This document shows, one piece after another, positions 1 through 4,467 of a stretch of DNA of 64,000 nucleotides (its first letter is position 1; each line of letters begins with the position of its first letter). The stretch is from NCBI RefSeq assembly GCF_988243305.1, contig NZ_OZ547136.1; one strand, 5' to 3'. A program made the translations under genes and the position numbers. Under the pieces are notes generated by a model that was not told the origin of the DNA, did not search any database, and saw only the letters and a program-made list of their open reading frames with translations.

Positions 1-81
1 ATCCGCACCGGCAAAAAAAGCGTGCTGGATTATCTGTTGAAACCCTTTAATAAAGCACAGGAGGCGTTGCGCGAACGATGA
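1..81 (+). CDS. 3' end of upstream CDS, truncated by window start (26 codons plus stop)
   Basis: Open frame from position 1 to TGA at 79-81; the stop overlaps the cueR ATG (ATGA at 78-81). By synteny possibly ybaT, not verified. Confidence 0.4.
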
Positions 82-485
82 ACATTAGCGATGTAGCAAA
101 AATTACCGGCCTGACCAGCAAAGCCATTCGCTTCTATGAAGAGAAGGGGCTGGTGACGCCGCCGATGCGCAGCGAAAATGGTTATCGAACCTACACGCAG
201 CAGCATCTCAACGAACTGACCTTACTGCGCCAGGCGCGCCAGGTGGGCTTTAACCTGGAAGAGAGCGGCGAACTGGTGAATCTGTTTAACGACCCACAGC
301 GTCACAGCGCCGATGTAAAACGGCGCACGCTGGAGAAGGTAGCGGAGATCGAACGGCACATTGAGGAGCTGCAATCCATGCGCGACCAGCTACTGGCGCT
401 GGCGAATGCCTGCCCTGGTGATGACAGCGCCGACTGCCCGATTATCGAAAATCTCTCCGGCTGCTGTCATCATCGGGCGGGGTGA
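78..485 (+). CDS. cueR: MerR-family copper-responsive regulator CueR
   Basis: 135-aa ORF; N-terminal MerR HTH ([25 protein letters not shown]) and C-terminal Cys motif ([10 protein letters not shown]) recognised. Confidence 0.9.
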
Positions 486-488
486 AAA

Positions 489-692
489 TCAGTTAATCCC
501 CGTTTGCACCGAAAGAATATGCTGCAAACTTTCTACCATAATGCGCCCCGACTGAAATAAGCCTTCCTGGATTTCGTTGTTAACATTCACAGCGTGAACC
601 AGGGAGGCTAATAACACCACTTGCAAGAAGGCAAAAATAAACGCACCGATAATCATAATATGCGTCAGGGGGATTTTCCTTTGCTCCTTCAT
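489..692 (-). CDS. hypothetical small membrane protein (67 aa)
   Basis: ORF with one hydrophobic helix (IMIIGAFIFAFLQVVLLASLV); its ATG overlaps the stop of the upstream lipoprotein gene (ATGA at 689-692). Confidence 0.4.
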   Translation of the reverse strand: MKEQRKIPLTHIMIIGAFIFAFLQVVLLASLVHAVNVNNEIQEGLFQSGRIMVESLQHILSVQTGIN

Positions 693-1111
693 TTTAAATA
701 ACCCACAAACTGACCTTCTTTCATTAAGGCGACTTTTCCTGTGTGATGATAAACAATGACGTTATACAGACCTGACTGATAAACAGTGGCATCTTTATTG
801 TCTTCATCAATTGCACATAATGAATCATTGAGATAAGCAAAGTTTTTACTGCTCATTCTAAAGGTCATGCCAAATCCTTTATAAATGGCTTTCTTTGCCG
901 CCTGGGCATGTTGTGCGGCTTCTGCATTTTTAAATGCCTGCGCTTCGGATGCACTTAAAATAGCCGTCTGACGCTGTTGTTCTGCGAGATAACAGGTGTC
1001 ATGGCTGACGCCCTGCGCCTGGCAATCTGCGATGCGGGAAGTGGGTGAACTACAGCCAGCCAGTAATATAACCGCCAGCAGGGAAAACGATTTAATGGAG
1101 CTATTCATCAT
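689..1111 (-). CDS. putative lipoprotein (140 aa), co-transcribed downstream of the trimeric autotransporter
   Basis: Signal peptide with lipobox LLAGC; 53-bp gap to the upstream adhesin gene, same strand. Confidence 0.55.
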   Translation of the reverse strand: MMNSSIKSFSLLAVILLAGCSSPTSRIADCQAQGVSHDTCYLAEQQRQTAILSASEAQAFKNAEAAQHAQAAKKAIYKGFGMTFRMSSKNFAYLNDSLCAIDEDNKDATVYQSGLYNVIVYHHTGKVALMKEGQFVGYLK

Positions 1112-1164
1112 TGTTAACCTTAAATAATGTACGGAAAATTGCGAATAAGAAATTGCTGTTAAAA

Positions 1165-2181
1165 TTAGAACGAATATCCCACGCCGACACCCGCACCGAA
1201 ATCAGATTGTGTATCCGCAGAAATACCTGCTTTAAGTACCGTATGCGTTCCGGCATTAAAAGATGTTCCTACAGACACCGCAGATTCACCGTTGAACGTT
1301 CCCGCTCCCGCTGACACCATCATCAAGTCACCGGTTTTCACCTGTGGTTGTGAGGCGATAGCGATGGCAGATGCAGTTCCCGCATTGGCTTCTTTACGAT
1401 TGTCCTCAACTTCGTTTTTCAGAGAATCGAAATGGTTATTGAGCGTGTTAATTTGTTGGCTGTTATCTGCGACCCGTTTTTGCGTGTTGGTTAACTGTTG
1501 CTGCGTTTGTGCGGAATCTTGTCTCAGACTTTCAATTTGCTCATGTGCCTGGACAGACTTCTGCGCCAGACTTTGCATTTGTTTATCGTATTGAGCCCTT
1601 TCTTTTTGCTGTTGTGCTGCCACATCGGTTGTCAGTGCATTCATTTTCTGCCCTTGTTCCGTGGTAGTGCGCTGATTAGCCTCATTTTGAGCCGCCAGCC
1701 TGGCATTAATCATCTCCTGATAATGCGCGGTATTTTGCGTATCTCCAGTCGCGGCGAGCGTTTTTTGTGTGGCTACGATCTGCGCCTGTTGCTCTGTAAT
1801 TTGCGTTTGCTGGGCATCAGTTACCGCAGACTGTCGGGCGTTGATCATGCTCTGATAACGGGCGGTTGTCTGTACATCACCTGTAGCGGCAACGGTTTTT
1901 TGTCCTGCGTCAGGATCTGTCTGGACAGGGGGAGTCTGAGTGGTATCAGGTGTTTCAGAAGGGATGTAGTGATGTTCAGTCAAATAGGTATACGCAGCGG
2001 GGCTGTTGTCTGTGCGTTCTAAAAAGCGGGTAATCTTCTGCTCAATCTCCGATTGCGACATGCCAGAGTTAATGGCTGAAAGCTCTGTTGCCGCCGCTTC
2101 AATGGTATCACCAGCTAAAACAACAGGGCTGGATGTTGCTGAAATTATGAGTGCCAGTAAAGCTACGTTTACAGTTTTCAT
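1165..2181 (-). CDS. short trimeric autotransporter adhesin-like protein (YadA-type C-terminal anchor, coiled-coil stalk)
   Basis: 338-aa ORF; N-terminal signal peptide; C-terminus ...GESAVSVGTSF...FGAGVGVGYSF resembles the YadA membrane anchor; two tandem 45-aa stalk repeats. Confidence 0.7.
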   Translation of the reverse strand: MKTVNVALLALIISATSSPVVLAGDTIEAAATELSAINSGMSQSEIEQKITRFLERTDNSPAAYTYLTEHHYIPSETPDTTQTPPVQTDPDAGQKTVAATGDVQTTARYQSMINARQSAVTDAQQTQITEQQAQIVATQKTLAATGDTQNTAHYQEMINARLAAQNEANQRTTTEQGQKMNALTTDVAAQQQKERAQYDKQMQSLAQKSVQAHEQIESLRQDSAQTQQQLTNTQKRVADNSQQINTLNNHFDSLKNEVEDNRKEANAGTASAIAIASQPQVKTGDLMMVSAGAGTFNGESAVSVGTSFNAGTHTVLKAGISADTQSDFGAGVGVGYSF

Positions 2182-2214
2182 TCATTTTCTCTTGTTCAAA
2201 ATAAGTCGCATTAA

Positions 2215-2231
2215 TGTTTCTATAAGAAACA
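2215..2231. promoter_or_regulatory. inverted repeat TGTTTCT-ATA-AGAAACA in the adhesin/HTH divergent intergenic region
   Basis: Read directly; 7-bp arms; same half-site recurs at 2344-2362. Confidence 0.35.
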
Positions 2232-2343
2232 AATAATATTGTTTTAAGAAATAAACTGCGTTGCAATTTAATCGAAATCTACGCCGCCATTTGTGTGATG
2301 TAAAGCGCATTTTTGTCTGGTGTAAGCGTGAACACCACCAATA

Positions 2344-2362
2344 AGAAACAAAAAATGTTTCT
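2344..2362. promoter_or_regulatory. everted repeat AGAAACA-AAAAA-TGTTTCT in the same intergenic region
   Basis: Read directly; the 10-mer ATAAGAAACA occurs at both 2222-2231 and 2341-2350. Confidence 0.35.
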
Positions 2363-2547
2363 TATATAAATAAAATCGAAAATCATTTTGTGCTCTTTCA
2401 ATGTAAAAAAGAGTAAAGACTTGTTTTGATAAGCGAAATAAATTCTGTTTCTGGACTAAACGTGAAGCGGTTCCTGATGTGTGCTAAAATGCGTTTCTTT
2501 GATAAATCTCAATTTTTAAGAGGTTTACGCCAGGCAGGAAAATTTAA

Positions 2548-2910
2548 ATGAATGAATTTGAGAAGATTTTTAATGAAATGAATCTGGACCGGGCATTGCT
2601 ACCGATCCTTTTTCGTTCGAACCGGTCAACAGTGTGGAAATATTTAAGTGGCGATAGTACGGCTCCTGCCTCAGCTATGTCACTGATTATGCTGTTGCAG
2701 TTAATCCAGAAACGAAACCCCGATCTGTTAGCCGAATGGTTAACGCTTTCTGATTTCACCATTCCGCCAGAAGTTTACCTGGACCAGCCTGATTACTGGA
2801 AAGGGTGGGTGTATACGCAACACAAGGTCAATAAAAACGTCCTGGAATATCTAAAAAAACATTATCCGGATGAAGACCAAAAAAACATGAATAAAGGTAG
2901 TGACGAGTAA
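2548..2910 (+). CDS. hypothetical small protein (120 aa), possible HTH DNA-binding protein
   Basis: ORF divergent from the adhesin gene across a 366-bp AT-rich spacer; helix-turn-helix-like segment RALLPILFRSNRSTVWKYLSG. Confidence 0.45.
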   Translation: MNEFEKIFNEMNLDRALLPILFRSNRSTVWKYLSGDSTAPASAMSLIMLLQLIQKRNPDLLAEWLTLSDFTIPPEVYLDQPDYWKGWVYTQHKVNKNVLEYLKKHYPDEDQKNMNKGSDE

Positions 2911-2929
2911 TTTGCCAATGCCAGTTAAT

Positions 2930-3094
<165 letters not shown>

Positions 3095-3100
<6 letters not shown>

Positions 3101-3553
3101 AATGACCGCACGGATGATCAGCGTTATCCCTTCTATCGCAATGACTTCAACATGCGTACCTGCACCGAGATCCTCGCTGGCGCTGACAGGCCATGAACTG
3201 TCACCGACGCGCATATGACCGCGCCCGTTGACCAGTGGAGATTCCAGCACAAAACGTCGGCCAATCAGCTGCTGCCCGCGCTGGTTTAAATGACTGTCGC
3301 TGTGCTTTTGTTCGCGCACCCGCCGCGACAACCATTTCCACCACAGCCAGGCGGCGAGCAGCGTCAGGACGGCAAACATCACCCCTTGCCACTCCCAACC
3401 CAGCGGCACCAGCCAGACCACCAGGCCGGTAATCACCGCTGCCACGCCGCTCCAAAGCAGATAACCATTGCCGCCCAACATCTCGGCTGCCAGCAGCAAC
3501 CCGCCGAGACTGAGCCAGAAAATATGTGGATGAACGACCATTAACTCCATCAT
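3095..3553 (-). CDS. ybbJ: NfeD-like inner membrane protein YbbJ
   Basis: 152-aa ORF with N-terminal TM helices; stop-start overlap with qmcA. Confidence 0.85.
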
Positions 3554-4467
3554 GGCTGAGTCCGCTTGTTGGCGCTGTCTTTCACCAGCTCGGCAATCCC
3601 GGCAATCGACCCCATCAGGCTGCTGGCCTCTAATGGCATCATCACTACTTTGCTGTTACTGGACGAACCGATCTGCTGTAACGCTTCGGTGTATTTCTGT
3701 GCGACGAAGTAGTTCACCGCCTGAATATCACCGGAGGCAATGGCTTCAGATACCATTTTGGTGGCGCGGGCTTCTGCTTCGGCAGAACGTTCACGCGCTT
3801 CGGCCTGTAAGAATGCCGATTGACGTTCACCTTCCGCTTTCAGGATTTGCGACTGTTTTTCACCTTCAGCTTTGAGGATTTCCGCCTGACGGATCCCTTC
3901 CGCTTCAAGGATGTAAGCGCGTTTGGTACGTTCCGCTTTCATCTGCGCGTTCATTGAAGAGATAAGCTCTGCCGGTGGGCGCACGTCGCGAATTTCAATA
4001 CGGGTGACTTTAATCCCCCACGGGTTGGTGGCTTCATCGACAATACGCAGCAGGCGTGAGTTGATGCTGTCGCGCTGAGAGAGCATTTCGTCAAGTTCCA
4101 TTGAACCCAGCACGGTACGGATGTTAGTCATGGTCAGGTTGATGATCGCCAGCTCCAGATTGCTGACTTCATAAGCCGCGCGCGGCGCGTCAATCACCTG
4201 AATAAAACAGACTGCGTCGATGGTAACGTTGGCGTTATCTTTCGAGATAACTTCCTGGGAAGGGATATCGAGCACTTGCTCCATCATATTGATCTTGCGA
4301 CCAATGCGATCCATAAACGGCACCACCAGGCTTAGACCTGGCTGTAACGTTTTGGTATAGCGACCAAAGCGTTCTACCGTCCATTGATAGCCCTGCGGCA
4401 CGATTTTGACGCCCGCGCCGACAATGACCAGTGCGACAAAAATGAGAATCGGGATAAAGATAAGCAT
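3550..4467 (-). CDS. qmcA: SPFH/stomatin-family membrane protein QmcA
   Basis: 305-aa ORF; SPFH domain and C-terminal coiled-coil repeats ([29 protein letters not shown]). Confidence 0.9.

Follow-up and report, generated by a model that had tools for sequence, protein, structure and literature searches.

A small lipoprotein gene of the Escherichia coli island OI-29 is recurrently encoded next to headless trimeric autotransporters in Enterobacterales

Trimeric autotransporter adhesins (TAAs) have dedicated helper proteins of only two known kinds, SadB and TpgA (2026 preprint). SadB is a trimeric inner-membrane lipoprotein (Asp at position +2) that combines a nine-heptad coiled coil with a MATH-like sandwich (PDB 4C47); it is encoded in the sadBA operon of Salmonella and E. 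coli and improves the display of its TAA without being essential for it. TpgA, from the Acinetobacter ataA-tpgA operon, carries BamE-like and OmpA_C domains and, as summarised in the 2026 preprint, binds the TAA anchor and aids display of the passenger while not being needed for insertion. The same preprint clustered the neighbours of TAA genes in 1,383 genomes, recovered only SadB, TpgA and the cytoplasmic DUF2827, and considered further helpers unlikely; since a YadA head domain was required in that survey, headless TAAs such as those described here would be missed. A third point of comparison is the radD/fad-I/rapA/rapB operon of Fusobacterium, in which loss of FAD-I raises radD transcription. 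Here we analysed a 64,000-nucleotide stretch of E. coli DNA (NCBI RefSeq assembly GCF_988243305.1, contig NZ_OZ547136.1), referred to as the window, and focus on positions 489-1111, where a lipoprotein gene, z0638, and an overlapping open reading frame (ORF) for a 67-aa small membrane protein follow a gene for a headless TAA, z0639. This region corresponds to O-island OI-29, known from pathogenic E. coli (enterohaemorrhagic E. coli, EHEC, O157:H7). The original prediction took the two small genes for a possible export or assembly helper pair of the adhesin, comparable to SadB. The genes concerned are as follows.

489-692, minus strand: gene for the 67-aa small membrane protein (WP_000664216.1)
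689-692, minus strand: ATGA start/stop overlap (the plus strand reads tcat)
689-1111, minus strand: lipoprotein gene z0638 (WP_001305512.1), 140 aa, from the ORF, the call of the Prokaryotic Genome Annotation Pipeline (PGAP) and primer mapping
1112-1164, minus strand: 53-nt spacer that separates the autotransporter gene from z0638 and includes a conserved AAGG ribosome-binding site
1165-2181, minus strand: headless trimeric autotransporter gene z0639 ('gmrA'), 338 aa

The family to which the z0638 lipoprotein belongs is encoded next to TAA genes far more often than expected by chance. A scan with the family alignment across one genome per GTDB species returned 51 loci, 23 of them with a full-length homologue of the lipoprotein, and the ORFs of these loci were searched with the window proteins and with an anchor hidden Markov model built from the first matches (L001, L005 and similar numbers are labels of the compared genomic loci). 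Immediately upstream of the lipoprotein gene and on the same strand, an ORF with a YadA anchor was present in 12 of the 23 (L005-L009, L012, L016, L017, L019, L023, L025, L026). Two more loci are probable cases: L010 encodes a coiled-coil protein that shares 52% identity at its C-terminus with the divergent L009 anchor but is not confirmed as a YadA anchor by Pfam (E 0.9), and in L022 a TAA gene lies 1.9 kb upstream of the lipoprotein gene. Homologues from protein databases add Pseudocitrobacter faecalis, with two tandem TAAs, Enterobacter asburiae, with a TAA, and an Enterobacter sp. with none; in Lelliottia, a TAA-linked lipoprotein has a different C-domain. Given how few TAAs occur among ~4,500 genes, the chance expectation is <0.1 adjacent cases. 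The TAA-linked members fall into at least five clades of the lipoprotein tree, with lipoproteins that are only 40-50% identical, and their modules occupy different chromosomal sites (cueR/ybbJ, wrbA-yccJ, thiMD, icd and others); the linked TAAs range from 242 to 728 aa, and the intergenic gaps are mostly 50-200 nt. Gene order that is kept at 40-50% protein identity is a normal signature of functional coupling, and the balance of the evidence tips slightly towards a lipoprotein function that is tied to the autotransporter. Neither the lipoprotein family nor its association with headless TAAs is described in the literature searched; the genes are annotated but uncharacterised.

The product of z0638 corresponds to the 140-aa lipoprotein with an LLAGC lipobox and three further cysteines that had been read from the DNA. 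Its N-terminus is MMNSSIKSFSLLAVILLAG/CSS..., with the lipobox LLAG/C20, which fits the pattern [LVI][ASTVI][GAS]C, and Ser at +2, and its cysteines are at positions 20 (lipobox), 30, 40 and 99. PGAP labels WP_001305512.1 'hypothetical' or 'lipoprotein', and a dN/dS of 0.03-0.06 across Escherichia alleles indicates purifying selection. All 27 homologues inspected have the lipobox, and the +2 residue is S, T or Q, never D; because Ser, Thr or Gln at +2 directs sorting to the outer membrane by the E. coli Lol rule, the protein is predicted to be lipidated and to reside in the outer membrane, facing the periplasm. The AlphaFold model has a mean predicted local distance difference test score (pLDDT) of 79, and one of >90 for residues 81-140. 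Together with the alignments, it divides the protein into an N-module, comprising the lipobox, a helix, the conserved pair C30/C40 and a ~30-residue helix (37-66) with the motif ...CYLAEQNRQ..., and a C-module (75-140) modelled as an 8-stranded beta-barrel in which E103, Y111, G114, Y121 and G125 are near-invariant. C30 and C40 probably form a disulfide in the N-module. The linker between the modules is short here, variable in length across the family and His-rich in some members. By eye, the heptad hydrophobicity of helix 37-66 is poor, and the NCBIfam Ala-zipper model scored 14.8 bits against a cut-off of 43.

The two modules also occur apart. Lipoproteins of ~65-75 aa that consist of the N-module alone, with a lipobox, a C-x9-C pair and the ...CYLAEQNRQ... 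helix, are widespread in Gammaproteobacteria; we found them in Aeromonas, Pseudomonas, Buttiauxella, Atlantibacter and Silvania (L030-L047, L050-L053). They are not linked to TAAs, their neighbours are heterogeneous in the Aeromonas, Pseudomonas and Buttiauxella contexts, and this family, too, appears to be undescribed. The C-module is fused in other members to the periplasmic domains TolA_C or DUF4156.

A search of 1.84 billion cluster representatives yielded only 147 relatives, and named homologues elsewhere were almost all from Enterobacterales. The homologue in L015, filed as Chryseobacterium sp. 18061, is close to that of Enterobacter sp. JUb54 (L014) and lies among enterobacterial-type genes; this assembly is probably mislabelled or contaminated. 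That neither small gene fits a named family was borne out in all databases searched: Pfam matched neither the lipoprotein nor the conserved domains of 80 relatives, PHROGs and PADLOC had none for the lipoprotein or the small ORF, and the PDB had none for the lipoprotein by sequence (phmmer) or profile (hmmsearch). NCBIfam gave only sub-threshold matches to TraV, XAC1346 and Lpp-like models, on the signal peptide and N-terminus, and no mention of XAC1346 was found in the literature. One source names a lipoprotein homologue TraV, after the outer-membrane lipoprotein of F-type conjugation systems. The likeness to TraV extends over the signal peptide, the lipobox and a Cys-containing N-terminus, and the TraV model (TIGR02747) gave the window protein 19.5 bits and homologues no more than 26, over the first ~60 of 145 positions and against a cut-off of 44.75. 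We rejected an identity with TraV because the scores are below the cut-off, only the N-terminal part is matched and no type IV secretion system genes are nearby. Kinship with the neighbouring NfeD protein YbbJ, prompted by the name of one AFDB match, was also rejected, and P0181 (1,212 aa, 8 matched stretches) proved to be an unrelated Cys-rich repeat protein and not a family member. Nor did a phage or plasmid origin of the family hold up, as there was no phage match and homologues are rare on plasmids, the few plasmid matches including mislabelled chromosomes.

How far the comparison with SadB carries can be judged on three levels. In outline, both are small enterobacterial lipoproteins encoded beside a TAA gene, with a lipid anchor, a helix and a beta-rich C-domain, and SadB has a stand-alone paralogue, YajI, just as the family described here has TAA-less members. 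In detail they differ: the inner-membrane Asp of SadB is replaced by Ser, Thr or Gln in the z0638 family; sadB lies upstream of a very long TAA gene with head domains (sadA), whereas z0638 lies downstream of a short headless one; and the nine-heptad coiled coil and MATH/Ig sandwich of SadB contrast with a ~30-residue helix and an 8-stranded barrel. As to descent, membership in the SadB/YajI family of known TAA export lipoproteins, as a divergent branch, could draw only on the general resemblance of a helix followed by a beta domain next to a TAA. Against this, hhalign of the 80-sequence family profile with E. coli YajI aligned only the lipobox (probability 1%), the PDB sequence and profile searches were empty, the barrel is not a MATH/Ig sandwich, +2 is Ser and the helix has only ~30 residues. 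With no homology beyond the lipobox and a different fold, we rejected this membership, the likelihood of which is practically nil; what the two have in common is their layout and possibly their role. The idea of a SadB-like helper pair thus stood in so far as these are real envelope genes in an operon-like array, and fell as regards sequence or fold kinship, sorting and gene order.

Other described systems are similar in part. TpgA, too, acts on its TAA from the periplasm, and its gene follows that of the TAA within one operon, but the z0638 lipoprotein has neither a BamE-like nor an OmpA_C domain. With the fad-I operon only the layout is shared, an autotransporter-type adhesin gene with a small lipoprotein gene and small uncharacterised ORFs; RadD is monomeric (type Va) and from a distant phylum, the effect of FAD-I is on the radD transcript, and no homology was found. 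The best structural neighbours of the barrel are the lysozyme-inhibitor, adhesin-complex-protein (ACP) and other binding barrels. MliC/PliC and Neisseria ACP are also small 8-stranded barrel lipoproteins or periplasmic proteins, with ~10% identity to the z0638 product. The Pfam MliC model (PF09864) had no match, even among 80 family members, and no lysozyme link was present in any genomic context of the family. The near-invariant residues E103, Y111, G114, Y121 and G125 of the family appear to differ from the MliC motifs.

The second gene also agreed with its first description, as a 67-aa single-helix protein whose ATG overlaps the lipoprotein stop (ATGA at 689-692). Its product, for which 'hypothetical' is the only annotation, has a basic N-terminus (MKEQRK), a single transmembrane helix spanning approximately residues 12-34 and a ~33-aa tail. 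Judged from the charge distribution only (positive-inside rule), the topology would be N-in/C-out, with an amphipathic ~33-residue tail in the periplasm, and the ATGA overlap suggests that translation of the small protein is coupled to that of the lipoprotein. One could object that the ORF is untranslated, a chance reading frame that falls into the 3' untranslated region when z0638 is transcribed: it is short and without a database family, its ATG follows only a weak Shine-Dalgarno sequence, and it was unannotated in the original EDL933 record, in which OI-29 is listed with three genes. However, synonymous changes outnumber nonsynonymous ones, e.g., 7:0, with a dN/dS of 0.07-0.4 (about 0-0.4 overall) that indicates purifying selection, and the frame, the length, the helix and the ATGA overlap are shared between E. 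coli and Pseudocitrobacter. The positional counterpart in P. faecalis is 43% identical over 46 aa, and E. whittamii, Escherichia sp. E1V33 and two Pseudocitrobacter genomes (L002, L005, L006, L007) have the same transmembrane helix in proteins of 64-68 aa with the 4-nt overlap. We therefore consider a chance ORF extremely improbable, and both ORFs are almost certainly real, co-expressed envelope genes.

As a conserved pair, however, the lipoprotein and the small protein did not stand the test. Homologues of the 67-aa protein are confined to Escherichia/Shigella and a few relatives (Pseudocitrobacter); elsewhere the third gene is unrelated or absent. In Rahnella, Serratia and an Enterobacterales metagenome-assembled genome, the lipoprotein gene is followed by one for an unrelated soluble protein of ~75 aa, which belongs to a family of ~70-80-aa proteins with no signal peptide (MKKHHTDQFKHLPPEQQY...) and no PHROGs or PADLOC match (L012 7408-7653, L016 7408-7650, L017 7408-7629, L021 7492-7707, L023 1317-1529). 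In four of these five loci the soluble gene also overlaps the lipoprotein stop by ATGA, and in Serratia it starts 5 nt after it. The third gene of Pantoea conspicua encodes a 69-aa protein with a C-terminal transmembrane helix, and many loci have no third gene. Since the third genes differ and the overlap is found repeatedly, coupling to the lipoprotein recurs with exchangeable partners; we view the 67-aa protein as a lineage-specific cofactor or add-on and not as a conserved part of a machine.

The gene upstream of z0638 is a TAA gene by several features. Pfam YadA_anchor matched residues 279-338 of its 338-aa product over the full model (1-60/60, E 1.6e-11), the N-terminus MKTVNVALLALIISATSSPVVLAG resembles a Sec-type signal peptide and is followed by a Gln-rich coiled-coil stalk, and PGAP names the protein 'YadA family autotransporter adhesin'. 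No head domain was detected in it, and its adhesive function is therefore putative. The stalk is polymorphic in E. coli and other Escherichia, giving proteins of 338, 415, 579, 594-600 and 703-709 aa through tandem modules of ~110 aa (L058 1880-3682, L060 3212-5341, L005, L007), while the anchor, the lipoprotein and the small gene are nearly invariant. Some strains have an intact long ORF of which the PGAP annotation covers no more than a 349-aa 3' part ('YadA-like family protein'). The same gene has been published as encoding a transcriptional activator, GmrA (z0639), on the basis of electrophoretic mobility shift and chromatin immunoprecipitation assays on the fliA promoter (PMC5826968). The assignment of the genes is not in doubt: primers in the supplement of PMC5826968 map unambiguously and equate z0638 with the lipoprotein ORF, z0639 with the YadA-anchor ORF and z0640 with a 120-aa ORF, and the cloning and tagging primers for z0639/'gmrA' span the whole YadA-anchor ORF, from ATGAAAACTGTAAAC... 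to ...GGCGTGGGATATTCGTTC (first and last codons). The published function of a transcription factor thus conflicts with what the sequence suggests, an autotransporter, whose signal peptide and membrane anchor make DNA binding in the cytoplasm unlikely. Otherwise the protein gave only chance-level coiled-coil matches in Pfam, e.g., to TMF_DNA_bd (E 0.079), a match that may have been read as the DNA-binding domain of GmrA.

Beyond the three genes discussed so far, the locus contains the following features.

78-485, plus strand: cueR, convergent neighbour of the 67-aa ORF (ORF list and annotation)
486-3125, no strand: approximate extent of OI-29, by comparison with K-12
2276-2304, minus strand: promoter-like site TTTACA-17-TAGATT (consensus scan only)
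2548-2910, plus strand: divergent gene z0640, 120 aa, with an N-terminal helix-turn-helix (HTH)
from 3095: ybbJ/qmcA

According to the published description, OI-29 measures 2,643 bp and contains z0638, z0639 and z0640 (PMC5826968). All four island genes are called by PGAP, the lipoprotein gene and the small gene in many E. coli genomes. Positions 1-3600 of the window were matched over at least 80% of their length in 1,378 of 5,426 complete genomes. The stretch of about 486-3125 is missing in K-12, where the stops of cueR and ybbJ abut with 0 nt between them; the island is inserted exactly between these convergent stops, with approximately the last 10 ybbJ codons (~3095-3125) replaced (the K-12 counterpart of the junction is L056, 1399-1440). 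Its GC content is 32-48%, compared with ~55% in the flanks. Only a 3-nt spacer (486-488) separates the end of cueR (485) from the stop codon of the small ORF (489-491), which leaves no room for a terminator; the lack of one had been noted at first reading. Since the cueR and ybbJ stops already abut in K-12, where the pair is on a list of convergent 'excludon' pairs (PMC12288877), this tight, terminator-free convergence is inherited from the insertion site and is not a property of the island. In Serratia silvae (L021), an HTH gene, a lipoprotein gene and a third gene without a TAA adjoin qmcA-ybbJ-cueR-copA, so that the cueR/ybbJ neighbourhood may be an old or preferred site.

Several features of the flanks are recorded here as separate observations. 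Rfam had no match within 489-1111; at the right end of the island, repetitive extragenic palindromic (REP) elements occupy 2968-3134, with an naRNA4 match (RF02564) of 71.9 bits at 2968-3045 on the minus strand and a second, weaker naRNA4/REP copy at 3068-3134, and such REP/BIME-type repeats account for many scattered megablast matches per genome. Upstream of cueR, the window carries genes for a type I secretion ABC permease/ATPase and an HlyD-family adaptor (L001 1-3081), the stop of the latter overlapping the cueR start (window 1-81); in K-12 these two genes are not found there and ybaT precedes cueR. Inside the 3' end of cueR, at ~410-480 on the minus strand, there is a very stable hairpin (-47 kcal/mol, z -3.4, equalled by 0 of 200 shuffles) that includes a 9-bp perfect inverted repeat, GATGACAGC/GCTGTCATC; at least the 3' arm of the hairpin is identical in the K-12 stretch inspected. 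The hairpin would be part of any read-through transcript of the small ORF, but no U-tract comes after it, and hence it is no classical terminator.

The divergent gene z0640 is the likely regulator of the module. Its product has an XRE/HigA2/MqsA-like HTH in the first ~63 residues; the AlphaFold model (pLDDT 83) gave only HTH DNA-binding proteins as top Foldseek matches in the PDB, all weak (best E 0.18, probability 0.99), and Pfam MqsA_antitoxin matched with an E of 0.12. The gene has a dN/dS of 0.08-0.18, and homologues lie divergently upstream of the module in at least 11 related loci. On sequence and model, it seems a more plausible DNA-binding regulator than 'GmrA'. The site at 2276-2304, also present in the O157 allele, is a candidate operon promoter upstream of the autotransporter gene. 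We found no convincing terminator between module genes and, in either allele type, no significant hairpin between the autotransporter and lipoprotein genes; an attenuator or terminator there was rejected because the spacer folds no better than shuffled sequence. In RNA sequencing of EHEC in Dulbecco's modified Eagle's medium, z0638 had 20 reads per kilobase per million (RPKM) and the autotransporter gene 96, both falling to 0 in HeLa-attached bacteria, and in quantitative reverse transcription-PCR the two were down -10.6-fold and -8.5-fold, respectively, on HeLa contact. The operon-like layout behind the autotransporter gene is thus supported by a shared strand, the lack of a convincing terminator and co-regulation in the EHEC RNA sequencing.

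With some reserve, we propose that the lipoprotein serves as a periplasmic assembly, stabilising or anchoring partner of the headless autotransporter. The module would be a small, horizontally moving set of genes for a divergent HTH protein, a headless TAA, a lipoprotein and a small membrane protein. The lipoprotein would be exported by Sec, lipidated at Cys20 and delivered by the Lol pathway to the outer membrane, in its inner leaflet, from where its N-domain, with the C30-C40 disulfide, and a flexible linker would present the 8-stranded barrel in the periplasm. During or after insertion of the TAA by the beta-barrel assembly machinery, this barrel may bind either the periplasmic face of the 12-stranded anchor or the unfolded passenger or stalk, and surface display of the TAA would be improved, stabilised or modulated, a role like that of SadB or TpgA for an unrelated protein. 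The 67-aa protein, which the ATGA overlap would keep in constant proportion to the lipoprotein, may sit in the inner membrane and act, by way of its ~33-residue periplasmic tail, as a lineage-specific cofactor or tether for the lipoprotein. The localisation, the disulfide, the TAA interaction and the effect on TAA biogenesis are all inferred.

Several findings weigh against this proposal. No TAA lies within 7 kb in 9 of the 23 species loci, nor in L004 and L061, and stand-alone lipoproteins share the thiMD and wrbA-yccJ sites with TAA-linked relatives; with ~40% of the family lacking a nearby autotransporter, the lipoprotein works without a TAA, and the coupling is not obligatory. Proteins with only the N-domain or only the C-domain are found in unrelated contexts, including one prophage region, and the third gene is not conserved, being a transmembrane protein, a ~75-aa soluble protein, something else or absent. 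Deletion of z0638 in EHEC left motility and fliC/motA expression, the readouts used, unchanged (PMC5826968), and the published deletion arm ends at window position 688, which means that the ATG of the small ORF was also removed. Deletion of the whole island left adherence to HeLa and Caco-2 cells unchanged (PMC5826968). These deletions argue against an essential helper. Surface display would lie outside those readouts, and SadB and TpgA, by analogy, are also nonessential enhancers. The chief competing explanation is an envelope lipoprotein that works independently of the TAA and merely shares an island and a transcript with it; the barrel would bind or inhibit a host or competitor enzyme, or bind a periplasmic ligand, in the manner of MliC/PliC/ACP, and the 67-aa protein would be the membrane partner of the lipoprotein itself. 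The commonness of stand-alone members, some of them at the sites of TAA-linked ones, the recombination of the C-domain with other N-terminal modules, the closest folds among lysozyme-inhibitor/ACP and other binding barrels and the absence of a TAA-like phenotype upon z0638 deletion all fit this explanation. However, adjacency in 12-14 of 23 loci and at least five clades, in fixed order and on one strand, is hard to explain without coupling, stalk length varies next to a nearly invariant anchor, lipoprotein and small gene, a point that we count in favour of a partner role, and a Pfam MliC match is absent even among 80 members. We thus regard TAA independence as rather unlikely, though it is the most serious competitor of a partner role.

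A regulatory role, in which the lipoprotein, with or without the small protein, would feed back on operon expression or relay the status of the envelope or surface, as FAD-I may suggest, is less likely still. The layout parallels radD/fad-I/rapA/rapB, the module has its own divergent HTH gene, and the island responds strongly to host-cell contact and is linked to flagellar expression; yet the small protein has only ~11 cytoplasmic residues and no evident signalling domain, no homology to FAD-I or known sensor lipoproteins was found, and fliC/motA expression was unchanged in the z0638 deletion. Deletion of the autotransporter gene ('gmrA'), in contrast, did change motility and fliC/motA expression, with reportedly lower fliA-dependent flagellar expression (PMC5826968). 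A bolder and very unlikely variant would make the autotransporter, the lipoprotein, the micro-protein and the HTH protein a relay that senses contact across the envelope, instead of an adhesin and its chaperone, running from engagement of the stalk through the lipoprotein at the periplasmic face of the barrel to the inner membrane and gene expression. If true, such a relay would explain how a 'gmrA' deletion lowers fliA-dependent flagellar expression even though the protein is membrane anchored.

In summary, we describe here an envelope lipoprotein family whose genes recurrently neighbour those of headless trimeric autotransporters. If the lipoprotein is an independent envelope protein, z0638 and the gene for the 67-aa protein would be an ordinary pair of accessory-island genes. 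If, as we tentatively favour, it is a partner of the autotransporter, it would represent a third, structurally unrelated helper solution for trimeric autotransporters, and a 338-aa autotransporter with a 140-aa lipoprotein would offer a tractable E. coli system for periplasmic partners in type Vc secretion. OI-29 is carried by EHEC, extraintestinal pathogenic (ExPEC), neonatal meningitis (NMEC) and avian pathogenic (APEC) E. coli lineages, and many other Enterobacterales also have members of the family paired with short headless autotransporters. With a lipoprotein, a micro-protein and a real HTH gene in z0640, the biology of the island probably needs to be re-examined.

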